A stretch of 64,000 bases of DNA from a virus (lineage: Duplodnaviria; Heunggongvirae; Uroviricota; Caudoviricetes), in IMG/VR virus record IMGVR_UViG_3300028602_000006. One strand, written 5' to 3'. Shown here piece after piece: positions 1 through 56,212 of this stretch (positions are counted from its first letter, which is position 1; each line of letters opens with the position of its first letter). Position numbers and translations under genes: made by a program. Under the pieces are notes generated by a model. It was not told where the DNA came from and made no database searches. It worked only from the letters and a program-made list of their open reading frames with translations.

Positions 1-33
1 AAAAAATAAGAGGGGTAGGCCGAAGAAAACATC

Positions 34-60
34 TTGACTTATTTAATATCTTATGATAGG
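34..60 (+). promoter_or_regulatory. Promoter-like motif TTGACT-N12-TATGATAGG upstream of first ORF
   Basis: TTGACT at 34-39, TATGAT at 52-57, 11 nt before the ATG at 69. Same architecture recurs at 2280, 51043, 53064, 54085 and 55413. Confidence 0.4.
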
Positions 61-68
61 CTTTAGAT

Positions 69-1037
69 ATGAAAAATGGAAAAATAAAATTGATTACGAA
101 GAGTAGTCCTTTAACTGAAATAACTCCTAAATTTGATAAAGTTATTGGGCAAGCTTCAGCGATAAAGAAAATGGCGTTTTTTATAGAGACGCATGATATG
201 AGTACTCCGTTGCCAACATTTTTGCTGACGGGTTCTCATGGATTAGGGAAAACGTATATCGCCGAAAAGATTGCCAATTGTATGGGTAGGCGTTTTATTG
301 AAGTAAATAGTGGTATGTTAGATGATCAAGAAGATCTTGTCAATGAGATTCTTCTTGGTAGAGTTATAGGTGATACTCCTGCGACATTATTCTTTGATGA
401 ATCGCATCGTTTGAATTCAGAGGTGACAACGGCGCTCTTATCGTTGCTTAACCCGTCTTCTGATCATAAAAATTATTTGAACTATAAAGAGTGGAGTATA
501 GAGTTTGATATGCGAAATATAAATGTTATTTTCGCAACAACAGATGCCCATCGTATGTTCGGGCCATTAGTTAATCGTTGCGAAAGAATCTTTTTTGATT
601 CGTACAACCACGATGATTTGTTGGCAATGCTTCATCTTTATTGTCCTGATGCGTATTTTTGTTGCAATAAAGAAGACCTTACTAATGCTTGCAGGGGAAG
701 AGGTAGAGACGCCTTTCAATTGGCCGGAAAGATATCTCGCTATCTTAACCAAAAGAATACTCCTATCCTTTCTAAAATAGGTTGGGGAAGATTGAAGAAT
801 ATCTTTGAGATTTATCCTCTTGGTTTAAACCGTCAGGAAGTTGAGCTTCTTCATATCGTTAGCACTTGCGGACCAATTTCTGTTGCCAACATAGCGCTAT
901 CTATGATGCTTAACACTGACAATATCGAATCTGAAATTGAAGTTCGTCCTAGGGAACTTGGGTTACTCCAAAGTACGACGAGAGGGCGAGTTCTTACTGA
1001 GAAAGGCGAAAAATATATTAAGAAAATTAAATTTTGA
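69..1037 (+). CDS. RuvB-like AAA+ ATPase
   Basis: Walker A LLTGSHGLGKTYIA, Walker B LFFDESHRL and sensor ATTDAHR are colinear with RuvB (LLxGPPGLGKTTLA / LFIDEIHRL). Length 322 aa matches RuvB. Confidence 0.6.
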   Translation: MKNGKIKLITKSSPLTEITPKFDKVIGQASAIKKMAFFIETHDMSTPLPTFLLTGSHGLGKTYIAEKIANCMGRRFIEVNSGMLDDQEDLVNEILLGRVIGDTPATLFFDESHRLNSEVTTALLSLLNPSSDHKNYLNYKEWSIEFDMRNINVIFATTDAHRMFGPLVNRCERIFFDSYNHDDLLAMLHLYCPDAYFCCNKEDLTNACRGRGRDAFQLAGKISRYLNQKNTPILSKIGWGRLKNIFEIYPLGLNRQEVELLHIVSTCGPISVANIALSMMLNTDNIESEIEVRPRELGLLQSTTRGRVLTEKGEKYIKKIKF

Positions 1038-1223
1038 TAATGTGAAATGGGAGTAAAAAGTGGAAAAGAATGGCAAATCTGACTTGGCTGAAAAAATTGT
1101 ATCTGATATAGTAGAGGATCTAACTGATCGAAGCGGGATTGGAGATGCCTTTGAAGACTGCGATGAAGACATTCAGAAAGAAATAAAAGATACATGGGAA
1201 AGAATAGTTAGGAGACATATAAA

Positions 1224-1844
1224 ATGAATTGCTGGGAAGAATATAAAGTGAGTGACGTACCCGAGGGATCATCCGGCGAATGGAAGATAGATAGATTTGA
1301 GATAACCGCAGAAGATGCTAAATTTCAGAATATAAGAGCATCATTTTCTTTTGGCGGAAGAGGATCTTTTTTTGTTCCGGGAAAATACACTCGTTTAACT
1401 AGAGGCGGCTTGGTAATTATGTCCGATACATTTGATGAAATTAGTGATCATCTTGGGGCAATTTATCAAGCGAAAGGACATTGCTTAGTCGGAGGGCTGG
1501 GATTGGGAGTCGTTATTAATGGTTGTCTTATGAATCCTGAAGTTGACCATGTAACGGTTATAGATTTGAGCAAAGATGTTATTAATCTTGTTGGCGATCA
1601 TTATCAAAAGAAATTCGGGGATCGTTTAACCATCATTAATGACAACATAATGACTTGGAAACCGCCTAAAGGAGCGCATTATGGAATGGCTTGGTTTGAT
1701 ATATGGGATGAAATCTGCGAAGATAATCTAGAATCCATGGCCGTTTTAAATCGTCGTTTCGCTCGTAAATCGGATTGGAAGGGATGCTGGAAACAGGAAA
1801 CAATTAAATATTATAGAGACTGCAATAAAAGAAGGGGATGGTAG
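1224..1844 (+). CDS. Rossmann-fold SAM-dependent methyltransferase-like protein
   Basis: Gly-rich motif I-like VGGLGLGV, followed by an acidic beta-strand end (VTVIDLSKD) and IINDNIM. Weak assignment. Confidence 0.35.
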   Translation: MNCWEEYKVSDVPEGSSGEWKIDRFEITAEDAKFQNIRASFSFGGRGSFFVPGKYTRLTRGGLVIMSDTFDEISDHLGAIYQAKGHCLVGGLGLGVVINGCLMNPEVDHVTVIDLSKDVINLVGDHYQKKFGDRLTIINDNIMTWKPPKGAHYGMAWFDIWDEICEDNLESMAVLNRRFARKSDWKGCWKQETIKYYRDCNKRRGW

Positions 1845-2051
1845 AAATGGGTAATAGCGTCAAAATAGATTATGCATACAAAGATATATCTGAAGTTGAA
1901 GAAATTTTGGGATATACAGTAAATGAATCATTTAAAACAGGGTTTAGTATGGCAAGAATGACTAATCCCATGTTCGGAAAATTGGATAAGGCGCATAAAC
2001 AGAGGAAGAAATCGAAATCACATAAATAGTCTTTAATTAGCGGAGATAATA

Positions 2052-2303
2052 ATGCCCAATAATATTAAAGACATTATGGATGAAGAGGGTAAATGGTGCA
2101 GAATAGACGGATGTAACGGGGCAATGGAGTTGCAATGGCCATTCGGAGAAGAATGCACCTGCCATCTTGGACATCCACCATGTCATGCTTGCATTAATAT
2201 GAGGCTTACCTGTACTAAATGCGGGCATGTCATAGAAGACGAGAATTACGAAGACGACGAAGAATATAAGGGAAATGTCTTGACTCATTACATTAATTTA
2301 TGA
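2052..2303 (+). CDS. Small Cys/His-rich (zinc-binding?) hypothetical protein
   Basis: SD-like GGAGATAATAATG. Multiple CxxC/HxxC pairs (CRIDGCNG, CTCHLGHPPCHAC, CTKCGH). Confidence 0.45.
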   Translation: MPNNIKDIMDEEGKWCRIDGCNGAMELQWPFGEECTCHLGHPPCHACINMRLTCTKCGHVIEDENYEDDEEYKGNVLTHYINL

Positions 2304-2306
2304 TAG
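2280..2306 (+). promoter_or_regulatory. Promoter-like motif TTGACT-N13-TATGATAGG
   Basis: Near-identical to the motif at 34-60 (TATGATAGG shared). Lies 11 nt upstream of the small leader ORF at 2317. Confidence 0.4.
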
Positions 2307-2316
2307 GATTTGTTTT

Positions 2317-2424
2317 ATGATGGAAGTACAAAAATATATTAGGGAAAACGGTCTCGATAAACTTCGGGAAGAATTTTCGATAATTGTTACCGATTATCCT
2401 GACCGAATTGGAGCAATATTATGA
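2317..2424 (+). other. 35-aa leader ORF homologous to the N-terminus of the RNA-ligase-like gene at 7102, translationally coupled (ATGA) to the nuclease-helicase gene
   Basis: Hand translation gives MMEVQKYIRENGLDKLREEFSIIVTDYPDRIGAIL. This aligns with MTMHVQKYLREKGLKSLIDEFHIDVREYDDRIV of the 7102 ORF at roughly 60 percent identity. Its stop TGA at 2422-2424 overlaps the ATG at 2421. Confidence 0.5.
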
Positions 2425-4619
2425 ATACTATTAAACTTACGCATCCTTTTATAAATAAATGTCCTGACATTGATGAATTATTCTTCAATAAAGATGGCGA
2501 AGTTGTTTGTACGATTAACGCCTTTTGTGGTAAAATTAAAACTTTGTCAGCAAAGTACTCCGACAGGATGGATGAAAATAAATTCAAAGGTGATGCTTTA
2601 GAGTTGTTTACTGAATTTATGATCCGAACAGCGCCTGAAGACAATCGTATTGGTATTTACAACTACAAACCTATTACTGATGCAGAAGACGATGATGTCG
2701 GCGTTGATGGATTTGGGGCAGGCGAAGATGGAAATCCAGCTACAGTTCAGGTGAAGTACAGGGCCGGTAATTATGTCTTGACAGCAAATGCAGATCACCT
2801 TTCTAATTTTCTTACTGCGTCTTGGAATGACTTCGCAGTTCCTATCAATTCAAAAACAAATATGCTTATTGTCACAACAGGCCAAAAGGTAGATGAAAGA
2901 ACTCGTCAAAAGATGCTCAAAGACAAAGTGAGAGTACTTAACAGAGATTCTTTACGAAGAATGTACGATAATCGTCCTGAATGGTGGAAACGATTTTACG
3001 AATCAGTAAAAAATAACCGTTTTGCTCCTAGCCACAAACGTACCCCCATCGTTTTAAGACAGCATCAAAAAGAAGCAAAAGACGCAATCAAAAATGATAA
3101 AAACGGTAAGGGTAAAGTACTTCTTCCCACTGGAACAGGGAAAACCATAATTGAGGTCCATACAGCAATTGATTCAATCAAAGCGCTAAGGCGTAAAAAA
3201 GTAATCGCCCCCATCATTAAAGTTAATTCGAGTCGTATTCTTCTTTGCTTCCAATTAGCTGATGATTTTATTAAAGAATTCGCTATGGCAAAAATAAATG
3301 CTCGATATGTTAATTTCAATTCGGGCAAAAAAGATGAAACAGAATATGCTGAATTGATGCAACAAGAAGGGTGGGGGTATAGAAAAATTCTATCCACTAC
3401 AAATCCCCAAGAAGTTGCTAAGGTCTATGAGGATTGTAAAAAGAAAAATATGCCTTTGGTTATCTTCAGCACTTATCATTCCTCTGAAAGACTGGCTGAA
3501 AGTGGATTGGTTCCCAATATGACAATTAATGACGAAGCTCATAATCTAGTTTCTAGAAATTTTCATAGGGCCGCTAAATTACCTACTGATAGTAATATCT
3601 TCTTCACTGCGACTGAAAAGGTAACAGATTCCGATGACGGTTTGGGCATGAACAACGAGGACGTGTTTGATAATATAATTTACACAAAATCTGCAAAGGA
3701 ATTGATTGACGCAGGAGAAATGGTTCCTCCTTATCTTCATGTTGTTCGATCTTCTAACGAATGCCGCATTGATACGGATTACGAAATGATGTTTCAATCT
3801 ATCGTAGAAGCATTTAAACATCATGAAAATAAGATAAAAGAAGTGTCTTATGATGCTGAAAATATAGGCGCTAAAGTTCTTGTCGTTTGTAGAGGACAGC
3901 AGGATCTACTTCAGATGTTTAAGACAAAAGCGCTTGAACATTTTAAGACAAATTACCCTGATATCCATCTATTTGCCTTATCTTCTGAATTTGGGATGGT
4001 TAATGATGGAGAGTTCTTTGAACCTCCTGTAACAAATATCAAGAAATATCATATGTTGAAAAAACTTAAAGCTATGGGTCATAACGAGAGGGCTTTGATT
4101 TTTCATGTCGATATGATTGGGGAAGGGATTGATGTCCCCGGTGTTACAGGAATAATGCCATTTAGGAATTGTGAAGAGTCTAAATTAATTCAGAATATTG
4201 GCAGGTCAACTAGACTTCATCCTGAAGATCGTAAGCGTTTTTACAATGAAGAAATTAGCCCTAATGACCGAACAATAGGATGGATTAAACCTTATGCATG
4301 GGTTATCATCCCATCATATATGATCGATTCTGAAGGTATCGAGGCTCGTTTTAGATTTATTATAGATCGTGTCAGAAGAGAGTACGGCTACATCCCTCAA
4401 CAGCATACAGTTATAGATAATGTTGAGGGTTTAAGCGATGAAGACGAAATTGATACTGTCAATAAAATCACTAAGAAAAAGAAACAAGTAAAATCTCATA
4501 TAGAAGAATTCAAACATGAATATGAAAAAGTTTGTGTTATGGAGAAAATTATCATGGAAGATAAGTTGACTCAAAAAGAGAAGGATGTATGGGATGAACT
4601 TAAGGCTATGGGATTGTAA
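2421..4619 (+). CDS. PD-(D/E)xK-like nuclease domain fused to SF2 (DEAH) helicase; restriction-enzyme-like motor subunit
   Basis: N-terminal GVDGFG...VQVKY (D...QxK variant of PD-(D/E)xK). Helicase motifs I LLPTGTGKT, II NDEAHN, III FFTAT, and a QNIGRSTR arginine finger. Confidence 0.7.
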   Translation: MNTIKLTHPFINKCPDIDELFFNKDGEVVCTINAFCGKIKTLSAKYSDRMDENKFKGDALELFTEFMIRTAPEDNRIGIYNYKPITDAEDDDVGVDGFGAGEDGNPATVQVKYRAGNYVLTANADHLSNFLTASWNDFAVPINSKTNMLIVTTGQKVDERTRQKMLKDKVRVLNRDSLRRMYDNRPEWWKRFYESVKNNRFAPSHKRTPIVLRQHQKEAKDAIKNDKNGKGKVLLPTGTGKTIIEVHTAIDSIKALRRKKVIAPIIKVNSSRILLCFQLADDFIKEFAMAKINARYVNFNSGKKDETEYAELMQQEGWGYRKILSTTNPQEVAKVYEDCKKKNMPLVIFSTYHSSERLAESGLVPNMTINDEAHNLVSRNFHRAAKLPTDSNIFFTATEKVTDSDDGLGMNNEDVFDNIIYTKSAKELIDAGEMVPPYLHVVRSSNECRIDTDYEMMFQSIVEAFKHHENKIKEVSYDAENIGAKVLVVCRGQQDLLQMFKTKALEHFKTNYPDIHLFALSSEFGMVNDGEFFEPPVTNIKKYHMLKKLKAMGHNERALIFHVDMIGEGIDVPGVTGIMPFRNCEESKLIQNIGRSTRLHPEDRKRFYNEEISPNDRTIGWIKPYAWVIIPSYMIDSEGIEARFRFIIDRVRREYGYIPQQHTVIDNVEGLSDEDEIDTVNKITKKKKQVKSHIEEFKHEYEKVCVMEKIIMEDKLTQKEKDVWDELKAMGL

Positions 4620-4684
4620 ATATTATTGACATTGCTTGTCGGATATGTTAATCTTTTCATATCTTAAATGGTAAAGGATATTTA

Positions 4685-5881
4685 ATGAGTCAAGAAAAAA
4701 TATTGGATGCTCAAGCTGTTAGAAGTGTTTATGAGAAGTTTTCTATAGATTTGCCAAATATAGGCAATCTACAGAACGTTTTTACTCCTTATTCGCTTTG
4801 CAAGGATATGATTGGACGCCTGAAGAAGTATAAGAGGAAGTTTGAAGGAGCGAACTTCTCTGTTTTTAATCTTGAATTTGCTGAAGTTTTAATGTATGAT
4901 TATGGAGTTAAGGCAAATCAGATTTGGTTCTTTACTGATTGTGTTGAGAAGAGCAAATTCGCTCAGTTGAATAGGTATGCGGGGTTGAATGTCGAATTGG
5001 TTAATTTAAGCCGATTCTTACGGGAGAAGATTACTATGAAATTTGATGTTGTTATTATGAATCCGCCTTATCAGGCCCCTAAAGCCAAAGAGCACGAAGG
5101 GAGAGGAAAATGTGGAACATCGCTGTGGGAAGATTTTGTTAGGAAATCCTTTGAATTGGCGAAAGATGATGGATATGTTTGTGCTATTCACCCTAATAGG
5201 TGGAGAAGACCCGAGGGCAAAATTGGCGAATTAATTAAGTCAAAACAAATTCATTATCTTGAAATGCATGGACTGGAAGACGGAAGGAAAACATTTTCTT
5301 GCCAAACCGATTATGATTGGTATATTGCTCAAAACAAAAAATCAGAGACCAATACGCAAGTTGTAGACTATGATGGTGAATCAAATTCAATTGATTTGAA
5401 AAACGCTCCTTTCATTCCCAACTCCAATGTGAAAGATGTTTTGTCTCTCGTCGCAAAAGAAGGAGAAGAAAAAGTCAATTTGTTATGGAACTGTGAATAT
5501 CATACTCAAGCAAGAGCAAAAGACGGAACGATGTCACCAATACAAACCGATGAATTTAAATACCCTTGTGTTTATTCTGTAACAATCAAAGGAGAAGTTA
5601 AGTTTTGGTACTCAAGCAAAAAAGAACAATTTTTTGGAATTCCTAAGGTCATATGTTGCAATGGTCATACTATGCCAATTGTTGACAAAAATGGGGAGTA
5701 CGGATTAACTCAATTCGCATTTGGAATAGCTGATAAAAAAACAAATTTAGAAAAAATACAAAATGTTATGAATTCTGATGAATTCAGGAAAACAATAATG
5801 GGTTATAGAGATAATGGTGGCAATGTTTATGACAAGAACATGATAGCAACTTTCCGCAAAGATTTTTGGAACGAAATATGA
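4685..5881 (+). CDS. N6-adenine DNA methyltransferase (NPPY) with C-terminal putative target-recognition region
   Basis: VVIMNPPYQAP is a motif IV. Upstream NVFTPYSLCKDMI is a motif X-like element. No clear FxGxG motif I in this ORF. Confidence 0.6.
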   Translation: MSQEKILDAQAVRSVYEKFSIDLPNIGNLQNVFTPYSLCKDMIGRLKKYKRKFEGANFSVFNLEFAEVLMYDYGVKANQIWFFTDCVEKSKFAQLNRYAGLNVELVNLSRFLREKITMKFDVVIMNPPYQAPKAKEHEGRGKCGTSLWEDFVRKSFELAKDDGYVCAIHPNRWRRPEGKIGELIKSKQIHYLEMHGLEDGRKTFSCQTDYDWYIAQNKKSETNTQVVDYDGESNSIDLKNAPFIPNSNVKDVLSLVAKEGEEKVNLLWNCEYHTQARAKDGTMSPIQTDEFKYPCVYSVTIKGEVKFWYSSKKEQFFGIPKVICCNGHTMPIVDKNGEYGLTQFAFGIADKKTNLEKIQNVMNSDEFRKTIMGYRDNGGNVYDKNMIATFRKDFWNEI

Positions 5882-6453
5882 AAACCACCACAAAAACTTG
5901 TACCAAACGCCAAAATCGAAAAAAACAAACTGCTGAGGATTTTACTCCGGCATGGTTGGTTAATCAAATGCTCGACAAGTTAAATGAATATGGAAAAGAA
6001 TCATGGGAAGAAGGGAAAACTTTTCTTGATCCTGCTTGCGGGAATGGAAATATGCTCGTATGTGTTTTGAAGCGTAAAATAAAACTAGGACATGATCCAT
6101 CAGAGGCATTGAAAACTATCTATGGAACCGACATAATGGATGATAATATCAAAGAGTGTCGCTTAAGGCTCCTTAAAATTATTCAAGAAGAAGGAATTAA
6201 AATAACACTTGAGCACATTAAATCTGTGTTTAATAATATTATTGTAACGAGATTGAGTAGATACAAAAGTGGATCTCTTGACTATAATTTCAAATTCAAA
6301 AACAAAGCATCGCATAAAGATGTTATTAAGTGGTTAGACGGAATACAGAACCACAACTGGCTTGAGTTAGTGGGACACGAAAACATTAATGCCATCATAA
6401 AAAATGACGTTGAAGCTAGTTTTGTTGAAGAGAAATTTGCCGCATTCTTTTAA
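5866..6453 (+). CDS. Methyltransferase N-terminal-like fragment (motif X + motif I + post-I, no NPPY)
   Basis: FTPAWLVNQML, LDPACGNGNMLV (FxGxG-type) and IYGTDIMDD. Overlaps the previous ORF by 16 nt in another frame. Confidence 0.45.
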   Translation: MERNMKTTTKTCTKRQNRKKQTAEDFTPAWLVNQMLDKLNEYGKESWEEGKTFLDPACGNGNMLVCVLKRKIKLGHDPSEALKTIYGTDIMDDNIKECRLRLLKIIQEEGIKITLEHIKSVFNNIIVTRLSRYKSGSLDYNFKFKNKASHKDVIKWLDGIQNHNWLELVGHENINAIIKNDVEASFVEEKFAAFF

Positions 6454-6531
6454 AGGAGTTTTGTTGGCTTTTCTTGTATAATATGTACATGAGAGCGACC
6501 AATAAACTCGTAGAAATTAGATATTTAATAA

Positions 6532-6596
6532 GGCTCTACCTAAGTAGGATCTGGGAGTTTGGTCGCTTTCACCTACTTGGGGACGAGCCTTTTTTA
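6532..6596 (+). terminator. Long-stem rho-independent terminator
   Basis: GGCTC...CTAAGTAGG...CCTACTTGG...GAGCC nested stems are followed by TTTTTTATT. It also carries three copies of AGCGACCAA (two direct, one inverted). Confidence 0.5.
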
Positions 6597-6775
6597 TTCC
6601 AGTTAAGGAGAGCGACCAAAAATGAAAGACGAAATAGAAATTGTAGTGCGATTGAGCGAAATTGCATCGAAAAGATTAGATAAATTGCGAATAGATGGGA
6701 TTGATATAATATTCGACTTACACAACGATGTAGAAGAATATGTTAATGTTTGGCTGATAGGATTAGAGGTCAATT

Positions 6776-7055
6776 ATGCAAACTAAAACATGTTCAATTT
6801 GTAAAGAAGATCTATCTATACATAACTTTTACAAAGATAAGAAGTCTCCTGACAGGCATAGTTATCGATATTTTCGGATGGTATGAAGTGGTCAAACTAT
6901 GGAGGTAGAACGGGATGGCAAATAGATCATATCATTCCTTGTGCAAAATTTGACTTGACAGATGTAAAAGAACAGCAAAAATGTTTTCATTATTTAAATT
7001 TACGACCTTTATGGGGAAAGGACAATCAGAATAAAGCTGCAAAAATTGCTTGACA
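6776..7055 (+). pseudogene. HNH endonuclease, apparently frameshifted (zinc-finger N-part and HNH core in different frames)
   Basis: Frame 1 reads MQTKTCSICKEDLSIHNFYKDKKSPDRHSYRYFRMV*. The +1 frame continues ...GGRTGWQIDHIIPCAKFDLTDV...NLRPLWGKDNQNK* (HNH D-H-I...N...N). The shift lies near the T-run ATTTTC at about 6878. Confidence 0.45.
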
Positions 7056-7078
7056 TTTATCATCGAATCATATACAAT
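7050..7078 (+). promoter_or_regulatory. Sigma70-like promoter (TTGACA-17-TACAAT)
   Basis: TTGACA at 7050-7055 with a 17-nt spacer to TACAAT at 7073-7078. Lies 24 nt upstream of the rnl-like ATG. Confidence 0.55.
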
Positions 7079-7101
7079 GACGTAAACAATGGAGAAATAT
7101 T

Positions 7102-8343
7102 ATGACAATGCATGTTCAAAAGTATTTACGAGAAAAAGGTCTTAAATCTCTGATAGATGAATTCCATATAGACGTTCGTGAATATGATGACCGAATTGTC
7201 TTGAATTACGATCAAATAGAATCGCCGAGGTTTCATCCTATTTGTGATGAATGCCGAGCGCTTATTCTCCGTAAGTCTGATTGGTCAGTAATGGCTCGCT
7301 CGTTCGATAGGTTCTATAATTGGGGAGAAGGCGTAGAAGATCGTGTTCTTAAAGAAAATCCTTTAATGCAAAGAATTACTATCGATCCTTTTTCATCTAC
7401 AATATACGATGGAAATAACAAGTTTATGCCGTTCCCCTTGCAAAACTCTCTAGTGCAAGAAAAACTAGATGGGTCTCTCATATCTGTATATTGGGACGGA
7501 GAAGATTGGTGCGCTTCAACTAGAAAGATGGCCCATGCTGAGGGTCAAACTAATTTCGGAACCACATTTTCTGAAATATTCTGGGGCGTAGATAAGGATT
7601 TGAAAGAAAAACTTTCCAAGTCTAATTGCCATCAGCAAACTATTGTTTTTGAACTAACGGGGCCAGCGAATAGGATCGTGACCGCTTATCCTAATACAGG
7701 AATAACTTTAATCGGAGGCCGGTGGAACCTAGAGAGCCTTGACTATAAGGAACTAACTGCCAAAGAGCTAGATGACTTGGAAAAATCATGGGGTATAACC
7801 CGACCAAAAAATTACGAGGTCGATGATGCTACTAATTTAATCTCATTAGTTCATGGATTTCCCGCCATGGACGAGGGAGTTGTCTTGGTATATGAAAATA
7901 CAAATGGCTCTCATTTTCGTGTGAAGGTGAAAAACCCTCGTTATGTAGCTATCGCTAATATGAGGGCTAATGGAGGTATTTCACCTAAGCGAATTCTCTT
8001 TCTTATTATGGAGAATGAACATCACGAGTATTTGAAATATTTTGAGGAAGATCTCAAATACTTCAAATTTGTTGAGGAAGAATATCTCGAAGCAATAAAT
8101 CGTATTACAAATACATGGAATAAGGTAAAAGACATTAAAGATCAGAAAGAGTTCGCTTTGACAATGATGCCTCTTACTGAATATTCATTTGAAAAAGGTT
8201 TATTGTTTTCCGTCAGAAAAAACGGGACAACTGTTGAACAAGAACTTAAGAAAATAGAACCGAAGAAAATTGCGTTATCAATGAATCTTAAGGGGAAATT
8301 CGCCAAAGAATTTGGTGTACAAACGGAGGAAGAAGATGAGTAA
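7102..8343 (+). CDS. ATP-dependent RNA ligase-like nucleotidyltransferase (Rnl1-like)
   Basis: Motif I KxDG in QEKLDGSLISVYW. Size 413 aa. SD GGAGAAATATTATG. Confidence 0.5.
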   Translation: MTMHVQKYLREKGLKSLIDEFHIDVREYDDRIVLNYDQIESPRFHPICDECRALILRKSDWSVMARSFDRFYNWGEGVEDRVLKENPLMQRITIDPFSSTIYDGNNKFMPFPLQNSLVQEKLDGSLISVYWDGEDWCASTRKMAHAEGQTNFGTTFSEIFWGVDKDLKEKLSKSNCHQQTIVFELTGPANRIVTAYPNTGITLIGGRWNLESLDYKELTAKELDDLEKSWGITRPKNYEVDDATNLISLVHGFPAMDEGVVLVYENTNGSHFRVKVKNPRYVAIANMRANGGISPKRILFLIMENEHHEYLKYFEEDLKYFKFVEEEYLEAINRITNTWNKVKDIKDQKEFALTMMPLTEYSFEKGLLFSVRKNGTTVEQELKKIEPKKIALSMNLKGKFAKEFGVQTEEEDE

Positions 8344-8546
8344 AAATACAGTATTTGACATATCTACGGACATTGCAAATTGTTTTCCTGTATCTATGGA
8401 ATACAAACGGAAAATCAGGAATATGATACTTCGAGCCGCTAAACAAGCTATTCTAGAGCAGCAATTGGATAATACTACAATTGATTCAATAAATAGGTGG
8501 ATAGAGGCTGGCTAATATTCACTAAAATAAACTTTGCTTAAATTAC

Positions 8547-8574
8547 TTGATTTTTGGTCTAGTTATAGTATAAT
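8547..8574 (+). promoter_or_regulatory. Sigma70-like promoter (TTGATT-16-TATAAT)
   Basis: TTGATT at 8547 with a 16-nt spacer to a perfect TATAAT at 8569-8574. Lies upstream of 8602. Confidence 0.5.
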
Positions 8575-8601
8575 GGGGTTGTTGAATAAGATTGAATATA
8601 A

Positions 8602-9411
8602 TTGAAAGGAATAAATATGAAGATACATTTGTTGACGATTGATCCTCAGCGAGATTTCTGTAGTCCAAACGGCGCTCTTTTTGTTCAGGATGCAGATCAA
8701 GACATGATTCGTTTAGCGGCAATGGTTGACCGTTTGCGCAATAAAATTGATGATATCCACGTTACGCTGGATAGCCACAATGAAGTAGACATTGCTCACC
8801 CTATATTCTGGATTGATTCTAACGGAGCGCATCCTAATCCCTTTACTATTATTACAGAAGAGGATGTTGTCAAGGGTGTATGGACAACTACTAGGCCAAC
8901 ATGCCGCCAGCGAGCAGTTGATTATGTTAAAGCCTTAGCTTCCAACGGGCGCTACCCTCTTTGTATTTGGCCTCCTCACTGTATTATCGGTACAGAAGGA
9001 TGGACAATTCAGCAGCCTCTTGCTGACTCATTGTCAAATTGGTGCAAAGATCGCTTTAAGAAAGTAGATTATCAGGTTAAGGGTTCAAACGTATTTACTG
9101 AGCACTATAGCGTTTTCAGGGCAGATGTAATAGATCCGTCTGATCCATCAACGATGTTAAACACTGATCTCATTAAGGTTATTTCTGAAGCTGACGAAAT
9201 TTTGATCGCTGGCGAAGCAAGAAGCCATTGTGTCAATCATAGTTTTCGTGATCTTATCGGGGAACTTGGCAAGGAACACGCTCAGAAGTTCATTCTTCTT
9301 GAGGACGCTATGAGTGATGTAACGGGATTCGAAAATCTTGGAAAACAGTTTTTCGATGATATGATAGCTCTCGGCGTAAAATCAACCACAACTAAAGATT
9401 ATCTTGCATAA
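8602..9411 (+). CDS. Isochorismatase-family cysteine hydrolase (nicotinamidase PncA-like)
   Basis: N-terminal LLTIDPQRDFC (Asp of the D-K-C triad) and C-terminal GEARSHCVNHS (catalytic Cys context). Confidence 0.5.
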   Translation: MKGINMKIHLLTIDPQRDFCSPNGALFVQDADQDMIRLAAMVDRLRNKIDDIHVTLDSHNEVDIAHPIFWIDSNGAHPNPFTIITEEDVVKGVWTTTRPTCRQRAVDYVKALASNGRYPLCIWPPHCIIGTEGWTIQQPLADSLSNWCKDRFKKVDYQVKGSNVFTEHYSVFRADVIDPSDPSTMLNTDLIKVISEADEILIAGEARSHCVNHSFRDLIGELGKEHAQKFILLEDAMSDVTGFENLGKQFFDDMIALGVKSTTTKDYLA

Positions 9412-9447
9412 TAAGGATTTATCTTTAATTAACTAAAGGGGTAAAAT

Positions 9448-10221
9448 ATGCCTGATATTACAAATGAAACTACTGATATGACGAATCTACAGACGGCTTC
9501 CCGTTATGGATTCAGCGCTGTAGGACTTGATTCCTTGGGCGCTTCTGAATATACATTGGCTACCGTTGTTGTGGATGTCTCAGGATCAGTATCTGGATGG
9601 GTTAAACAACTAGAAGATTGTCTTAAGGCGATTCTTAAATCATGCCAAAGTTCACCTAGAGCAGATAACCTTCTACTGCGTTTAGTTTCTTTCGGAGATA
9701 ACGTCAACGAAGTTCATGGGTTTCGTCTTTTGGGCGACATTGATCCCAATGAATATGACAATTGTTTGACAATAAAAGGATGTACCGCTCTATTTGACGC
9801 AACGCACACTTCTGTTGAAGCTACAGCAGATTATGGCAAGTTGCTTATAGATCAGGGCGATATGACTGCGAATGCGGTTATCTATGTATTGACGGATGGA
9901 GGAGATAATGCCTCGAAGAATACTGCTTCTACTATTAAGAAATTATTGCAAAAAGTTAGATCGGATGAAAAACTGGAATCAATAGCAGTTATTCTAATTG
10001 GGGTGGGGTATGACGAAGATCATCTAAAGATATATCTTGATAAGTTCAAAAATACTGCCGAACTAGATCAGTTTGTCGATTTAACTGAATTGTTTAATAA
10101 TAGCTCGCCCGACAAGGCATTAGCTAAACTTGCAGGATATGTTAGTAAAAGTATATCGTCTACTTCACAGGCGCTTGCTAGCGGATCTTCTGCCGTATCA
10201 TCTTCATTATTGACATTTTAA
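9448..10221 (+). CDS. von Willebrand factor A (vWA) domain protein, TerY-like
   Basis: MIDAS motif VVVDVSGSVSG, downstream TDGGDN, about 250 aa. Confidence 0.6.
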   Translation: MPDITNETTDMTNLQTASRYGFSAVGLDSLGASEYTLATVVVDVSGSVSGWVKQLEDCLKAILKSCQSSPRADNLLLRLVSFGDNVNEVHGFRLLGDIDPNEYDNCLTIKGCTALFDATHTSVEATADYGKLLIDQGDMTANAVIYVLTDGGDNASKNTASTIKKLLQKVRSDEKLESIAVILIGVGYDEDHLKIYLDKFKNTAELDQFVDLTELFNNSSPDKALAKLAGYVSKSISSTSQALASGSSAVSSSLLTF

Positions 10222-15186: not shown

Positions 15187-17250
15187 ATGTCAATTGAACA
15201 AAAAATAAGTATATGTTTCGGGCAAATTGAGGTCGCTCCCGGTCTCCCTAGGGTCAACACTGAAAAAATGTTGAAGTATATCAAAGAAGCTAAAGCTGAA
15301 GCATCGGATCTATTGATATTCCCAGAATTATGCATTCCGGGATACCTTCTTGGAGATATGTGGGAACGTCCTGATTTTCTAGAAGATTGTGAAGAATGCG
15401 GTAAGAAAATAATTGAAGCTTCTCAAGGAATAACTATAGCCTTCGGGAATGTCAAAACAGATCCTAAAAATAAAAACGAAGACGGCAGAATCCGTAAATA
15501 TAATTGCTGTTTTATAGCATCAAACGGGCAATTGGTCACAACTGTCACAAAAACTTTACAGCCAAACTACAGGGAATTTGATGATAATCGCCACTTTTAT
15601 GACAAGCGTAAGCAATTGACTGATTCATATCTTTCAGAGCCAAGTACAAAGGTTTCATTTTCTGAATTCATTGATAAGGCCTATGAGCCATCCTTAACAA
15701 TAAATGGAATTAAGATTGGATTCTTACTCTGTGAAGACGCTTGGGATACAGATTATTCATTCTCTCCTATAGATGTACTCGCACCCAAATGCGATCTGAT
15801 AGTCAATATGAGTTGTTCTCCGTTTACCATGGGGAAGAACCAAAAAAGGAACAGGCTTTTCTCTCAAAGAGCTAAAAATAATAATGTTATGATTGCCTAT
15901 ATAAATAATGTGGGCATTCAAAATAACGGGAAAACAATTTATACTTTCGATGGGAATAGTTGTCTTTATGATATTAATGGTGCGCAGTTTGACCTTTCTG
16001 CTCCTTTTGAAGAAAGCCTTGAAGTTTTAAGCTTGGATTTAGATGCTCGTACAGGATCATATGAAGAGAGCGCCATTGGTTCGTCAAGCGATGATATTGA
16101 AGATTTGTATTCATCAATTTGTTATGGAATCGAAAAATTTCTTCAGCAGATAGGAGTTAATAAAGTAGTAATTGGTGTATCCGGCGGGATTGATTCGGCT
16201 GTTGTTGCGGCGTTGTTTTCTGAAATTCTTCCTCCGGAAAATATTTATCTTATTAACATGCCTAGCTCTTTTAATTCTCAAACCACAAAAGACTTGGCAA
16301 AAGACTTGGCTAAAAATCTGGGATGTAAATATAGTATAATTCCTATTGGATGTAGTATTGATCACACTAGAGAACAATTATTAAAAGAAGGATTTGATGT
16401 TAGTAAATTCGTTTTCGAGAACATTCAGGCAAGAGATCGTTCTTCCAGAATTCTTGCGGCCATTGCTTCTTCAGTAGGCGGGGTTTTCACTTGCAACGCC
16501 AATAAGTCTGAGGCAACCGTAGGGTATACGACTCTCTATGGGGATTTGTCCGGATTTTTGTGCCCATTAGCTGACGTATGGAAGACAGACGTGTACAAGC
16601 TTGCTGAGTATATAAATGATAGTAGTGATGAGATGATCATTCCCTATGGCATACTCGCAGTTAAGCCTTCGGCAGAATTAAACAACGATCAAAATGTCGA
16701 TGAGGGGAAGGGAGACCCTATTATTTACCCCTATCATGATTTGCTATTTAGAAGTTGGGTAGAAAAGTGGGAGAGGGCAACCCCCGCTGACATTCTACAA
16801 TGGGTCATAGATGATGATTTAGAAGGGAAATTAGGCTTTGAGGATGGGGATATAGTTGCCAAGTATTTTGGAGGAGATAAAAGAGCTTTTGTTGCCGACT
16901 TGGAAAGATGGTGGAATCTATATGACGGATTTGCTTATGCGAAAAGAATTCAGGCTCCTCCTGTTCTTGCGATCAGCCGCAGAAGTTACGGATTCGATCA
17001 CAGAGAAAGTTTAACCGCTCCATTTTATAGCCAAAAATATTACAAACTTCGTATGCAATATTTGGGAGAAGATTTGTCCATGAAAGAGGTTTATGACAAT
17101 TTAAAAACTATAAAAGAGAATGTCATTTTTGTTATGGCGAAAGAAGCTGGATTAGATATGGGAAAGTTTACAACCAAGGATTTAGCTCTTAAGGGATTCA
17201 TGTCCAAGATCTATGATTTATCCGATGAAGATATGGTTCATTGGGAGTGA
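15187..17250 (+). CDS. nadE: Glutamine-dependent NAD+ synthetase (nitrilase/CN-hydrolase domain + NAD synthase PP-loop domain)
   Basis: N-domain FPELCIPGY (Glu) and LLCEDAWD (Cys). C-domain PP-loop VIGVSGGIDSAVVAAL. 687 aa, typical of the fused form. Confidence 0.8.
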   Translation: MSIEQKISICFGQIEVAPGLPRVNTEKMLKYIKEAKAEASDLLIFPELCIPGYLLGDMWERPDFLEDCEECGKKIIEASQGITIAFGNVKTDPKNKNEDGRIRKYNCCFIASNGQLVTTVTKTLQPNYREFDDNRHFYDKRKQLTDSYLSEPSTKVSFSEFIDKAYEPSLTINGIKIGFLLCEDAWDTDYSFSPIDVLAPKCDLIVNMSCSPFTMGKNQKRNRLFSQRAKNNNVMIAYINNVGIQNNGKTIYTFDGNSCLYDINGAQFDLSAPFEESLEVLSLDLDARTGSYEESAIGSSSDDIEDLYSSICYGIEKFLQQIGVNKVVIGVSGGIDSAVVAALFSEILPPENIYLINMPSSFNSQTTKDLAKDLAKNLGCKYSIIPIGCSIDHTREQLLKEGFDVSKFVFENIQARDRSSRILAAIASSVGGVFTCNANKSEATVGYTTLYGDLSGFLCPLADVWKTDVYKLAEYINDSSDEMIIPYGILAVKPSAELNNDQNVDEGKGDPIIYPYHDLLFRSWVEKWERATPADILQWVIDDDLEGKLGFEDGDIVAKYFGGDKRAFVADLERWWNLYDGFAYAKRIQAPPVLAISRRSYGFDHRESLTAPFYSQKYYKLRMQYLGEDLSMKEVYDNLKTIKENVIFVMAKEAGLDMGKFTTKDLALKGFMSKIYDLSDEDMVHWE

Positions 17251-18857: not shown

Positions 18858-20192
18858 ATGGCATCGTTAGTTGAGAAAGTACATCTGATAAAGTCTGACC
18901 CAGTAAACAATAACAATAAGTTTTGGATTGGAGAATTATATGATGATGATTCCGTGGTTTGTAGATGGGGAAGAGTCGGAGATACTGGGCAAAGTAAATC
19001 ATTCCCCAGCGGAGGAAAGAAATTTTTAGATTCAAAAGTCCGCTCTAAAAAGAAATCAGGACGTAATGGTGAAATCGCATATCGAGAAATAGAAATTATA
19101 GACGGAGCAAGCGTTCCTGCACCCAAAACATCCTCTACAAAAACTACCAGCGGTAGCCAACTATCTCAAATCGCCAAAAAGCAAATTCAAACTGGTGGTA
19201 ATCCTGAGGCACTTAAACTCATTGATTACCTTGTTAAAGTTAACGCTCATCAAATCGCAAGTATGACGGGTGGCCAAATTACTTATAACTATGATACAGG
19301 TCTTTTCCAAACTCCGATGGGTCTTGTTTCTCAGGCTAATATTGATGAAGCGAGAGATAAAATTACAGGTATTGGTGATATTGTAGCAAAGAAAAAGTAC
19401 AATGATCCTAATCTTATGGAACTTACTAGGGATTATCTTATGCTTGTCCCTCAGGATATTGGGCGTAAAAGGCTTGAACTTGATGATTTTTGGTGCGATC
19501 TAACTGCCGTTCAGAAACAGGATGCTATTCTTGACGGGCTTCAAGCTTCTTTAACGCAAGCAGCTAAAACCCCCGTAAAGTCCGTCAAAGATAATAAGCC
19601 CGAAGAGCAAATATTTCAAACTAAGCTCGAACTCGTTTCCGATCCTAAGGCGATTAAGAAAATAAAGGACTTATACCATAAAACTCGTCAGTCTATGCAT
19701 AATTGTTATCACCTTGATGTCAAAAAAGTATATACAATTGATATTAATACGGTTCAAGATGCGTTCAAAAGAGACGGCGCTAAGATGGATAATGTTTGGG
19801 ATCTTTGGCATGGGACTAGAGCGAGTAATCTACTCTCCATTCTTAAGGGCGGATTGATTATTCCGCCGTCAAATGCATCAAATGTTACTGGGCGTATGTT
19901 CGGAAATGGGGTTTACGCTTCTGATCAGTCCACAAAGGCTCTTAACTATGCTTATGGATATTGGGGCGGGGGCAAATCAGATGACAACTGCTTTATGTTC
20001 CTTCTTAAAATGGCCATGGGTAATTATTACACTCCTAAAAGTCCGTTTTCAGCTAACTCTGCTCCCAAAGGCTATGATTCCACCTTTGCACAGGCTCATA
20101 AGAGCGGGGTATATAATAACGAAATGATTGTATATAGGACATCCCAAATAAATCTTAGGTATTTGGTGGAATTTAGTCCGAATGGTAAATAA
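18858..20192 (+). CDS. Poly(ADP-ribose) polymerase-like protein (WGR domain + PARP catalytic domain)
   Basis: N-terminal WGR (FWIGELYDD...CRWGRVGDTGQ). Catalytic H-Y-E triad context HGTRASN...GIYFA-like GNGVYASDQ...YNNEMIVY. Confidence 0.75.
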   Translation: MASLVEKVHLIKSDPVNNNNKFWIGELYDDDSVVCRWGRVGDTGQSKSFPSGGKKFLDSKVRSKKKSGRNGEIAYREIEIIDGASVPAPKTSSTKTTSGSQLSQIAKKQIQTGGNPEALKLIDYLVKVNAHQIASMTGGQITYNYDTGLFQTPMGLVSQANIDEARDKITGIGDIVAKKKYNDPNLMELTRDYLMLVPQDIGRKRLELDDFWCDLTAVQKQDAILDGLQASLTQAAKTPVKSVKDNKPEEQIFQTKLELVSDPKAIKKIKDLYHKTRQSMHNCYHLDVKKVYTIDINTVQDAFKRDGAKMDNVWDLWHGTRASNLLSILKGGLIIPPSNASNVTGRMFGNGVYASDQSTKALNYAYGYWGGGKSDDNCFMFLLKMAMGNYYTPKSPFSANSAPKGYDSTFAQAHKSGVYNNEMIVYRTSQINLRYLVEFSPNGK

Positions 20193-55798: not shown

Positions 55799-56212
55799 AT
55801 GGAGCTAAAAAATCCGAATAGAATATTTCATGAAGAAAAAAAATATGTGTACTCTTGCCAGTATCATGTAATCTTTTGCCCAAAGTACCGAAGAAGTGTA
55901 CTAATAAATGGAATAGAGAAAAGGTTGAAGGAACTTATCCATGAGAAGCAAAAGGAATATAACTATGAAGTAATAGACATAGAAGTAATGCCAAACCATG
56001 TGCATCTTCTATTAGATATAAATCCTAAAATGGGGATATGGTCTATTATTAGCAAAATTAAAGGATATACATCTAACACACTTCGTAAAGAATTTCCTGT
56101 TCTAAGATCTAGATTACCTACACTATGGTCTGGTTCAAAATTTATCGGTACAGTCGGATCTATATCACTAGATGTTATCAAAAAATATATTGAGGAACAA
56201 AAGAACAAATGA
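55799..56212 (+). CDS. tnpA: IS200-type Y1 HuH transposase TnpA
   Basis: CQYHVIFCPKYRRSVL, HuH MPNHVHLLL, catalytic Tyr region KGYTSNTL. 137 aa. Confidence 0.85.
   Translation: MELKNPNRIFHEEKKYVYSCQYHVIFCPKYRRSVLINGIEKRLKELIHEKQKEYNYEVIDIEVMPNHVHLLLDINPKMGIWSIISKIKGYTSNTLRKEFPVLRSRLPTLWSGSKFIGTVGSISLDVIKKYIEEQKNK

Follow-up and report, generated by a model that had tools for sequence, protein, structure and literature searches.

A 4.8-kb insertion (about positions 2411-7198) interrupts the RNA-ligase gene rnl at codon 31/32 in the window that we analyzed, a 64,000-nucleotide stretch of the Caudoviricetes record IMGVR_UViG_3300028602_000006. The best joint explanation of the data, which we hold with moderate confidence, combines this insertion with the view that the inserted genes encode a three-protein, motor-driven restriction-modification-like (R-M-like) enzyme related to Type ISP. 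The genome is a large one and probably that of a phage; this assignment rests on gene content and on relatives, as the window showed no phage structural genes. The neighborhood is an early-type region with counter-defence-like genes for RNA ligase, NAD synthase, and PARP. The features of the locus are as follows.

2280..2309, + strand: weak sigma-70-like promoter match (TTGACT-18-TAGGAT, 9/12), a consensus match not enriched over shuffles
2317..2424, + strand: leader ORF of 35 codons, the displaced original rnl codons 1-31 plus 4 new codons
2400..2410, + strand: left junction, 11 nt TGACCGAATTG, identical to 7188-7198
2421..4619, + strand: nuclease-helicase, 732 aa, Pfam ResIII and Helicase_C
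4685..5881, + strand: large methyltransferase (MTase) bigM, 398 aa, Pfam Eco57I MTase family, NPPY
5878..6453, + strand: short MTase-like protein shortM, ~191 aa, Pfam N6_Mtase positions 19-110 (N-terminal half)
6530..6597, + strand: long hairpin (6530-6591) plus U6, likely intrinsic terminator
6622..6786, + strand: ORF of 54 codons, overlapping at its end with the beginning of the HNH remnant
6776..7053, + strand: decayed homing-endonuclease gene of the HNH type (endonuclease VII-like), split over two frames (6776-6886 and 6883-7053)
7050..7078, + strand: sigma-70-like promoter match (TTGACA-17-TACAAT, 11/12), a consensus match
7102..7198, + strand: imported rnl 5' end (codons 1-32); the 11-nt junction repeat, 7188-7198, forms its end
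7199..8343, + strand: resident rnl remainder, T4 RnlA-family RNA ligase (whole gene 7102-8343)

All ORFs on which the original prediction had been built were verified at their positions. The cassette runs from the leader through the nuclease-helicase, bigM, and shortM to the terminator hairpin, and the predicted coupling of leader and helicase genes by ATGA is present at 2421-2424, as is a second ATGA at 5878, where the shortM start overlaps the bigM stop. The GGAG of the helicase ribosome-binding site (2410-2413) lies directly past the left junction. The weak match at 2280-2309 could be the old rnl promoter, which would now drive the cassette, and the best promoter-like match of the region, at 7050-7078, falls within the imported DNA, a short distance before the present start of rnl. 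The terminator that had been suspected after the MTase-like gene was supported by folding, with a hairpin of -32.1 kcal/mol (z=-3.95) that none of 200 shuffles equaled in stability and that is followed by U6; a simple terminator scan did not pick it up. This hairpin likely closes the cassette operon. The 54-codon ORF at 6622-6786 had no match in Pfam, PHROG, PADLOC, or NCBIfam.

The original prediction had seen a mobile island next to rnl, and related genomes agree with it. The segment is absent from four related lineages represented by five contigs (L007, L008, L010/L011, and L012), in which a RuvB-like gene is followed by small ORFs and then by rnl, with no helicase or MTase gene between the RuvB-like gene and rnl. 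The flanks of the segment are shared with the closest relative L007, the one close relative compared, at 88-99.9% DNA identity. The Zn-ribbon gene near the cassette is only 65% identical to its L007 counterpart; as the cassette lies in a variable region that is a mosaic too, the insertion could be an old one that was passed on as a block.

The leader peptide shares 18 of 30 residues with Rnl (BLASTP, E=2e-9 for the pair), confirming a resemblance to the Rnl N-terminus that had been noticed before, and the match was recovered again by tblastn over the whole window. In comparison with the rnl start of L007, the leader shows 79% DNA and 70% amino acid identity, whereas its DNA identity to the window's own rnl start is 60-62%. 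The present rnl start is closest to the distant lineages P0144, P0126, and P0127. Over residues 3-32, its identity is 53% to L007 and 87% (26/30) to P0144, whereas residues 33-413 are 89-90% identical to L007 Rnl and only 46-52% to P0144, and the comparison with these two genomes places the breakpoint at codon 32. At the DNA level, the identity to L007 is 60% over the imported 5' end versus 83-87% downstream, climbing gradually past the junction. The gene is a mosaic of foreign codons 1-32 and an L007-like remainder, and the leader is, as judged by its sequence, the displaced original 5' end of rnl. It had been suggested that the island carried a diverged copy of the rnl 5' end, and this holds, with the imported copy being the present rnl start and the leader the resident remnant. 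The mosaic product matches Pfam RNA_lig_T4_1 over the full profile (E=2.2e-17) and carries the KxDG adenylylation motif as EKLDGS, in agreement with membership in the T4 RnlA family.

In a three-way ungapped alignment, rnl homology stops right after the 2400-2410 repeat, and both junctions lie at the same rnl position and share the 11 identical nucleotides. The repeat encodes the conserved residues D-R-I, and its identity could partly reflect this conservation. No rnl fragment was found at any other helicase locus compared. The inserted DNA ends with a promoter-like site, a ribosome-binding site, and the foreign rnl codons 1-32, so that rnl stays intact as a mosaic, and the old rnl start was left upstream as the 35-codon leader, ATGA-coupled to the first cassette gene.

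How the DNA arrived is less certain. The HNH gene, already recognized as frameshifted, is also internally deleted: its two pieces map to positions 61-91 and 176-213 of phrog_1035, with ~85 profile positions missing. The C-terminal piece (6883-7053) retains the DH...N...N motif, and tblastn with residues 36-90 recovered HNH and endonuclease VII genes of phages. The motif of a free-standing HNH homing endonuclease is thus present in a gene that is no longer an intact ORF. As expected of such genes, it is absent from L007, L008, L010/L011, and L012 and adjoins the foreign rnl codons 1-32. No donor genome or HNH cleavage site for the insertion was found. It is plausible that the HNH enzyme encoded beside the imported rnl start made the break that led to insertion. 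The gene conversion by HNH that had originally been suggested is in line with the diverged rnl 5' end, but the part ascribed to HNH is circumstantial, the gene being decayed.

Alternatively, the insertion could have occurred without HNH, either by microhomology recombination between co-infecting phages or by inheritance of a block of ~1845-7200 through homologous recombination from a lineage with an old insertion. We give this route a substantial, if somewhat less than even, chance of being correct. It would account for the decay of the HNH gene, for trio cassettes at about 20 other loci that have no adjacent HNH (except L048, on the opposite strand), for a Zn-ribbon gene (65%) and a leader (79%) that are less L007-like than the outer flanks (88-99.9%), and for the gradual rise of rnl identity after the junction. 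However, the HNH gene directly adjoins the strongly diverged rnl start, and the coincidence of both junctions at one rnl position also argues for an involvement of HNH.

The first cassette protein consists of an Mrr-family PD-QxK nuclease (residues ~1-200), an SF2 translocase core (~210-610), and a C-terminal helical region. The profile search that had been proposed for 2421-4619 yielded, besides ResIII and Helicase_C, Mrr_cat_2, which the N-terminal 205 residues alone matched with 22.8 bits (Pfam gathering score 22). Across 65 homologs, there is no or hardly any variation at E61, D92-V-G94-V-D96, and Q110-V-K112. By the definition of the DxGxD and QxK motifs in PMC2790908, E61, D92, D96, Q110, and K112 correspond to E38, D74, D78, Q92, and K94 of LlaGI, which matter for cleavage according to mutagenesis (PMC2790908). 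The best PDB match of the AlphaFold2 model (pLDDT 88) in Foldseek was the Type ISP enzyme LlaBIII (4xqk, E=2e-15, 701 columns), and it spans nuclease and motor; XPB, RadD, and HsdR (EcoR124I HsdR) were also good structural matches for the motor. As a phmmer search of all PDB sequences, among them LlaBIII and LlaGI, found nothing relevant at E<=1, the likeness to these enzymes is one of fold and motif only. A search with the nuclease domain over 1.84 billion representatives delineated a small separate family of 398. The same helicase family also occurs as a stand-alone core gene in cyanomyoviruses, without nuclease or MTase neighbors at the two loci inspected (S-SSM7 and S-SZBM1; 254-300 bits to the family profile), and the nuclease-helicase query matched 419 cyanophage records in tblastn. 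The motor by itself therefore need not imply restriction.

For 4685-5881, the expected N6-adenine MTase fold with a recognition domain was found: bigM has a gamma-class fold with NPPY and a C-terminal DNA-recognition domain, its AlphaFold2 model (pLDDT 93.8) is best matched by CamA, M.BseCI, and M.TaqI in Foldseek, and the motif order X-I-II-III-IV followed by the C-terminal domain is that of M.TaqI and CamA. In an alignment of ~35 homologs, a conserved FNLEF occupies the place of the SAM-binding motif I, with N62 nearly invariant and E64 invariant. FNLEF, seen in all split systems, has bulky residues and a shorter loop in comparison to the glycine-rich motif I, which makes the methylation activity of bigM uncertain. 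Conversely, shortM carries the gamma N6A MTase motifs X, I (DPACGNGN), II, and III and has no NPPY. It shows 42% identity to the N-terminal MTase half of P0109, a single-chain relative, and adjoins bigM in every locus with enough sequence. Two details of the original prediction had to be revised. The start at 5866 gives way to the ATG at 5878, which is most likely correct in view of the ATGA overlap with the bigM stop, and the supposed MTase-like fragment is, by its canonical motif I and its constant place beside bigM, better described as a conserved third subunit. Since bigM is predicted to form a complete fold by itself, shortM would be an extra duplicated half and not a missing one.

About 20 independent loci combine modules for nuclease, helicase, bigM, and shortM, with several gene orders and fusions, among them a shortM-bigM fusion in L048 and a separate nuclease gene in L056 and the cyanophages L001 and L002; none of these loci lacks the nuclease module, which is either fused or adjacent. 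Single-chain nuclease-helicase-MTase-TRD relatives of 1228-1282 aa (P0106, P0109, P0112, L049, and L051) have one canonical MTase (DPA[CM]G[ST]G) and no shortM, and bigM has FNLEF in exactly those systems that also have shortM. The window contains one more copy of this system, at 60.7-64 kb, which is diverged. The domain identities, the conserved co-occurrence, and the fusions are shown by these data, and from them we infer that the cassette encodes a three-polypeptide relative of Type ISP R-M enzymes. In the proposed mechanism, bigM and shortM would act together in recognizing a target sequence in the DNA of the phage itself and in methylating it. Where DNA of the host or of a competing phage is unmethylated, the bound complex would load the motor, which would translocate using ATP, and the Mrr nuclease would cut. 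That the three proteins assemble, methylate DNA, and cleave it in an ATP-driven manner is predicted, as is their biological target.

We consider it rather improbable that the cassette is instead a DNA-metabolism or anti-restriction module, with a helicase for replication, recombination, or repair and MTase-like proteins that protect phage DNA, in analogy to DarB of phage P1, which is an MTase plus helicase. The stand-alone cyanomyovirus core gene, the repair helicases XPB and RadD among the top structural matches, and the early-type, counter-defence-like neighborhood would suit such a module, but the invariance of the Mrr catalytic residues across 65 homologs and a nuclease that is fused or adjacent in every case speak against it. 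The single-chain relatives, which have the Type ISP architecture, and the restriction enzyme as best PDB match also speak for the restriction reading.

It is likewise unlikely that bigM is a catalytically dead, DNA-recognizing pseudo-methyltransferase with shortM acting only as a SAM sensor, so that cutting would occur without protection by methylation. Such an enzyme could be a modification-dependent or specificity-subunit-guided nuclease, with phage DNA being protected in some other way. FNLEF in all split systems and the fact that neither protein has both motif I and NPPY would be explained. The conserved NPPY, motif X, and motif II aspartate of bigM, however, argue for a working catalytic pocket, and the L048 fusion and the ATGA coupling suggest joint action of bigM and shortM. 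In addition, the single-chain relatives have a complete canonical MTase, indicating that methylation is ancestral to the family.

Hardly credible, finally, is the idea that the leader, although short with its 35 codons, is a chance ORF, which the E value of 2e-9 opposes, or a later diverged in situ tandem duplication of the window's rnl start, which is contradicted by the different nearest relatives of the two rnl starts (L007 for the leader; P0144, P0126, and P0127 for the present start).

Returning to the R-M-like enzyme, we tentatively propose that nuclease, helicase, bigM, and shortM constitute an undescribed ATP-dependent R-M class, so far confined to phage-like genomes, in which methylation needs both MTase-like chains and whose cassettes spread when a break induces their insertion and the start of the target gene is rewritten in the process. 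If so, bigM (NPPY and recognition domain) and shortM (SAM-binding motifs) would form a composite or SAM-gated active site, and large phages would carry at least one such system, of differing specificity, to destroy host or rival-phage DNA.

Type ISP enzymes translocate along DNA in an ATP-dependent manner and cleave between head-to-head unmethylated sites. The original prediction named this class as the closest one, which the LlaBIII match and the existence of single-chain relatives support. As in LlaGI and LlaBIII, an N-terminal Mrr nuclease with DxGxD and QxK is followed by an SF2 helicase-like ATPase and by what is, in fold and motif order, a gamma N6A MTase with C-terminal recognition domain, its activity being uncertain in view of FNLEF, and the single-chain relatives of ~1250 aa keep the same domain order. 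Unlike in Type ISP, there are three polypeptides (2421-4619, 4685-5881, and 5878-6453) instead of one, an extra half-MTase subunit, and a remodeled MTase motif I; the fused relatives are shorter (~1250 aa, whereas the LlaBIII structure resolves 1484 residues), no similarity to LlaGI or LlaBIII was detected at the sequence level, and the carriers are large phage-like genomes in contrast to the plasmid-borne bacterial Type ISP systems. The Type ISP coupler domain was not identified in the cassette proteins.

The statement that such a split is not a textbook class was too strong, as Type I and Type III systems are likewise built from a nuclease-motor subunit and a separate MTase. The N-terminal nuclease resembles that of Type I HsdR, EcoR124I HsdR being among the structural matches, and the recognition domain inside the MTase polypeptide resembles Type III Mod. 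Nevertheless, membership in Type I is rejected because the separate specificity subunit HsdS, which accompanies HsdM and HsdR in that type, has no counterpart here and recognition resides in bigM; the nuclease is Mrr-type and not RecB-like, and PADLOC gave only a weak local match to Type I REase_I (8.7e-5). Membership in Type III is rejected because the nuclease is N-terminal (C-terminal in Res) and the MTase has the gamma motif order, being TaqI-like in contrast to the beta-class Mod. Phage P1 carries the Type III system EcoP1I, and a phage-borne ATP-dependent R-M system therefore has precedent. M.AquI and M.EcoHK31I are two-polypeptide DNA methyltransferases, and the EcoP15I Mod dimer divides labor; here, too, cofactor-binding and catalytic/recognition roles are apparently spread over two chains, but unlike in M.AquI and M.EcoHK31I, bigM alone is predicted to form a complete fold. 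The combination of bigM with an extra half-MTase was not found in the literature searched.

With regard to the insertion, the expected pattern for free-standing homing endonucleases such as T-even Seg and Mob is a co-converted, cleavage-immune flank beside the gene. In agreement with these genes, the HNH remnant lies between conserved genes, is absent from close relatives, and adjoins a strongly diverged gene segment. It differs in being decayed, in the 4-kb three-gene cargo that is part of the mobilized DNA, and in the non-homologous left junction that left a target-gene remnant. Integrating elements such as prophages in tRNA genes restore the end of the gene into which they insert. In the same way, the insert described here supplies a substitute gene end that keeps the gene functional and has a displaced partial copy on its other side, but it is the 5' rather than the 3' end that is replaced, the target is protein-coding, the cassette has no integrase, and the two copies are only ~62% DNA-identical apart from the 11 nt at the junction.

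All open reading frames named in the original prediction are present in the window, at the positions given there. The cassette (approximately 2411-7198) ends within the start of rnl, the gene of a T4 RnlA-family RNA ligase, and includes a large and a short methyltransferase-like protein, here termed bigM and shortM.

2421-4619, plus strand: nuclease-helicase, Pfam ResIII and Helicase_C
4685-5881, plus strand: bigM, Pfam Eco57I methylase
5866-6453, plus strand: shortM open reading frame, Pfam N6_Mtase in its N-terminal part
6776-6886 and 6883-7053, plus strand: two pieces of an HNH gene remnant, phrog_1035 positions 61-91 and 176-213
7102-8343, plus strand: rnl, Pfam RNA_lig_T4_1

The predicted similarity of the 35-codon leader (2317-2424) to the N-terminus of Rnl was borne out by 18 identities in 30 positions (pair E=2e-9), and in a tblastn search the leader was the sole second match of Rnl within the 64-kb window. 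The leader is also coupled to the nuclease-helicase gene as described, with its stop codon overlapping the ATG in an ATGA at 2421-2424. The HNH gene is frameshifted, as claimed, and its middle is missing too, because the two pieces match only the mentioned positions of phrog_1035, an endonuclease VII-like family. The C-terminal piece is similar to phage HNH genes. The proposed terminator folds into a hairpin at -32.1 kcal/mol (z=-3.95) that is followed by six U. Between this hairpin and the HNH remnant, a 54-codon open reading frame without database match (6622-6786) overlaps the HNH start and may belong to a decayed homing-endonuclease unit; neither its product nor the HNH pieces matched Pfam. 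The GC content does not set the island apart. With PADLOC and NCBIfam, no protein reached the cut-off for a named defence system, and the matches to PbeA, dnd_restrict_1, and XPB were weak and limited to the helicase core.

The cassette had been proposed to be an island, and it is indeed missing from every related genome that covers the site, because these genomes (L007, L008, L010/L011, and L012) run from a RuvB-like gene through small open reading frames to rnl. In L007, the closest relative retrieved, the flanking genes are 88-99.9% identical to the window in DNA, and the order is RuvB-like gene, 55-aa ORF, 206-aa ORF, small ORFs, Zn-ribbon gene, 75-aa ORF, and rnl, with no helicase or methylase genes in this interval. 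The other three, more distant lineages have only one or two small ORFs between the RuvB-like gene and rnl. In the other genomes examined, the three cassette genes occupy other sites, never beside rnl. A 206-aa gene 5' of the island (1224-1844), which matched phrog_15480 (annotated as methyltransferase) and no Pfam family, is resident backbone and not part of the cassette, since 93% DNA identity is kept in L007.

The sequence of the window is contained, without differences, in a metagenomic contig of 182,571 bp that was deposited as a Synergistaceae MAG, with ENA accession ERZ27250894 for the source sample. Gene content and relatives suggest that the source genome is a large phage; no phage structural genes were identified in the window, including ten further large ORFs that were inspected. 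A megablast comparison of positions 1-10000 with 50,697 phage records gave no match, so there is no close sequenced phage among them. Scans of IMG/VR yielded one relative of Rnl (40%) and, with the helicase alignment, two marginal matches. The latter alignment found nothing in the GTDB species genomes, in a scan that uses two peptide patterns and therefore excludes only close relatives.

A three-way alignment and the identities of segments gave a clear answer to the question of the two rnl starts, namely that the leader is the resident start that was pushed aside, and that the insert supplied a foreign one. This reading is based on the leader being L007-like, the intact rnl start being P0144-like, and the rest of rnl again being L007-like. 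Compared with the rnl start of L007, the leader (2320-2412) has an identity of 79% in DNA and 70% in protein; right after TGACCGAATTG (2400-2410), its homology to rnl breaks off. For the first 32 codons of the intact rnl, the identity with L007 is just 60% in DNA and 53% in protein, and from codon 33 onward, the identity of the two Rnl proteins is 89-90%. The Rnl homolog P0144 matches the Rnl start of the window in 26 of 30 N-terminal residues; its remainder is just 46-52% identical. The 11 nt of TGACCGAATTG recur at 7188-7198, precisely where the imported part stops; as they encode the conserved residues D-R-I, part of this identity may be due to conservation. Ahead of the foreign start lies the region's best promoter-like site (TTGACA-17-TACAAT, 7050-7078), and the left junction coincides with GGAG in the ribosome-binding site of the helicase gene. 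The former rnl expression signals and the leader would now be feeding the cassette.

Since the Zn-ribbon gene that adjoins the leader is just 65% identical to L007, the variable block may have been passed on in its entirety by a lineage that had acquired the insertion long before. An in-situ duplication of the rnl start was ruled out, as the two copies differ in their nearest relatives. An intron or intein was likewise rejected, as the leader is not an exon when the intact rnl has a complete start of its own. As to rnl in the relatives, an intein interrupts the L007 gene directly after the ligase active-site motif EKLDG (L007 5433-8260; the intein region also contains a 377-aa DUF7487 ORF in a different frame), and P0218, another Rnl homolog, has an Intein_splicing match, too. 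In this phage group, selfish elements seem to have a hotspot in rnl.

Homing endonucleases that spread with their flanks, such as Seg and Mob of T-even phages, are found as free-standing genes beside a strongly diverged stretch of the neighbor gene. The window resembles this pattern, with a free-standing HNH gene adjoining the strongly diverged stretch of rnl. For the displacement of the resident start, one can envisage that the HNH endonuclease would break a resident-type rnl near codon 31, that the left end would prime on the donor via microhomology just 5' of the helicase gene, and that the right end would recombine inside rnl. This model fits both junctions, and we regard the odds of HNH involvement as about even. 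Against it stand the decay of the HNH gene and the lack of an HNH gene beside the other cassette copies in the surveyed loci. No genome could be identified as the donor, and helicase homologs reach at most 69% identity; an rnl fragment upstream of the helicase was seen in 0 of about 50 loci, and no cassette adjoins the rnl of P0144. A donor that reads ...ATTGGAGCAATATT upstream of the helicase would favor the microhomology join at the left junction.

The original prediction had called for a profile and structure search with the nuclease-helicase. More than 200 homologs, mostly of about 735 aa, were found. When 65 of these were aligned, there was no variation at E61, G94, D96, Q110, and K112 and almost none at D92; D92-x-G94-x-D96 with Q110-x-K112 is the signature of the Mrr family. 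The corresponding residues D74, D78, Q92, K94, and E38 of LlaGI, which is a Type ISP enzyme, are needed for cleavage, as determined by mutagenesis (PMC2790908). The N-terminal 205 residues alone matched Mrr_cat_2 at the Pfam gathering score. With the AlphaFold model (pLDDT 88, pTM 0.83), the top match in a fold search of solved structures was Type ISP LlaBIII (E=2e-15, 701 aligned columns), followed by XPB, RadD, SauUSI, and EcoR124I HsdR; only the fold search was informative in this respect, as phmmer against PDB sequences gave nothing relevant. The nuclease-domain family has 398 representatives among 1.84 billion, and it was seen in phage-like contigs only. Some homologs of 860-935 aa (P0002, P0003, P0018, P0020, P0030, and others) carry a C-terminal DUF4357, which the window protein does not have. 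The cassette motor is in one helicase family with the 'helicase' that cyanomyoviruses have as a core gene (T4-like gene cluster 36), and 419 cyanophage records were matched by the query in all. The helicases of S-SSM7 (L066 3495-4712) and S-SZBM1 (L067 3495-4739) scored 254-300 bits with the family profile, and neither of these two inspected cyanomyoviruses has a nuclease or methylase gene beside it, so the motor alone does not imply restriction. Among cyanophages, only ACG-2014f and S-CAM7 surround the helicase with nuclease, bigM, and shortM modules.

bigM and shortM are the two METHYLTRANSFERASE-like proteins of the cassette. In its AF2 model (pLDDT 93.8), bigM (398 aa) is similar to CamA, M.BseCI, and M.TaqI, which are monomeric adenine methyltransferases of the gamma class with a C-terminal recognition domain. 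Motif X, the motif II aspartate, and NPPY are all kept, and at the site of motif I, FNLEF takes the place of DPACGxGN; among 69 homologs, E64 of this stretch is invariant and N62 nearly invariant. In shortM (ORF of 195 aa), the motifs X, I (DPACGNGN), II, and III are canonical, NPPY is missing, and about 70 unrelated residues follow. shortM probably starts at the ATG at 5878, which gives 191 aa and an ATGA overlap with the bigM stop codon.

We surveyed the arrangement of these modules in 50 metagenomic loci collected with the helicase alignment and in the loci fetched earlier, using BLAST and profiles of the four modules. Wherever the sequence 3' of the helicase suffices (about 20 independent loci), both bigM and shortM were found. 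The commonest arrangement is nuclease-helicase, bigM, and shortM. L056 has helicase, bigM, shortM, and a separate nuclease gene at the end, cyanophages ACG-2014f and S-CAM7 have nuclease, bigM, helicase, and shortM all as separate genes, and L048 has, upstream of the nuclease-helicase, a shortM-bigM fusion. Single chains of 1228-1282 aa (P0106, P0109, P0112, and L049/L051) combine nuclease, helicase, and one methyltransferase with canonical motif I and have no shortM nearby; the N-terminal half of this methyltransferase scores with the shortM profile and the C-terminal half with the bigM profile. In the surveyed sample, FNLEF in bigM always coincides with the presence of shortM. A conserved neighborhood, a shuffled gene order, and fusions that recur are what is usually seen with proteins that work together, and on these grounds shortM, which had been taken for a methyltransferase-like fragment, is most likely a subunit paired with bigM. 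The idea that shortM is the missing half of the bigM fold was rejected, as AF2 gives bigM a complete TaqI-like domain.

A tblastn search of the window with the cassette proteins detected, at the far end, a set of diverged paralogs (60732 onward).

59992-64000 and beyond (L065 4272-10826): region of the second set, including the serine recombinase gene upstream of it
60732-61424: second nuclease protein, 230 aa, DxGxD and QVK motifs intact
61391-63781: second helicase, 796 aa, with its own N-terminal nuclease-like domain, DxGxD and QxK motifs lost
from 63781, running off the window: second bigM (P0326), 395 aa on the full contig, 40% identical to the first
beyond the window, after the second bigM on the full contig: second shortM, 183 aa

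Judged from these genes, the genome carries two such systems. The second is flanked by a serine recombinase gene upstream (59992-60735) and a TnpB-like gene downstream, and the contexts of both systems suggest mobility. The window also contains an IS200/IS605-type pair (Y1 transposase, 55799-56212; TnpB, 56209-57282) and, on the minus strand, another TnpB-like gene (47502-48731); TnpB genes are frequent in the related contigs L003, L008, and L010 as well. Located 3' of rnl are an isochorismatase-like gene (8602-9411, a weak match under the gathering score), a glutamine-dependent NAD synthase gene (15187-17250, CN_hydrolase and NAD_synthase), and the gene of a PARP-like protein (18858-20192, WGR, PARP_reg, and PARP domains). 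Relatives also have NAPRTase and NADAR genes, and this NAD-related gene set might counter NAD-depleting defences.

With the Type ISP definition of PMC3874165, the architecture of the cassette is most likely that of a Type ISP enzyme split over three chains. By homology, bigM with shortM would recognize a short sequence and methylate an adenine in the DNA of the phage itself. If DNA is unmethylated, the complex would engage the motor, DNA would be pulled in an ATP-driven manner, and the Mrr nuclease would cut; the targets would be the chromosome of the host or rival phages that co-infect it. Points against this function are that bigM may not bind SAM, that the assembly of nuclease-helicase, bigM, and shortM is a prediction, and that the same helicase family stands alone in the two cyanomyoviruses inspected.

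If this is true, large phages would have motor-driven restriction enzymes of their own, in some cases two in one genome, and DNA-level warfare would be waged not just by the host but also by the virus, on the host chromosome or on rival phages. Type ISP-like enzymes that were dismantled and reassembled in many gene orders would be a natural experiment on the communication between nuclease, motor, and methyltransferase, and the bigM/shortM pair a testable case of a duplicated cofactor-binding half given to a second chain. The rnl scar, with the resident start as leader, a foreign start with its own promoter, and a one-codon breakpoint, would be an unusually clean record of a cargo cassette that entered an essential-looking gene without destroying it.

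Our literature searches turned up no account of a Type ISP-like system that is split or phage-borne. Neither could we find a description of the small nuclease-helicase family itself, which is seen in phage-like contigs only, of an obligatory pair of a methyltransferase with rebuilt cofactor loop and a half-size canonical paralog, or of split and fused forms in such variety. The single parts, namely an Mrr nuclease, an SF2 motor, a gamma methyltransferase, an HNH gene, and a T4-type RNA ligase, are of known kinds, and phage-borne ATP-dependent restriction has a precedent in P1. Known Type ISP enzymes consist of one chain, whereas the system of the cassette comprises three polypeptides.
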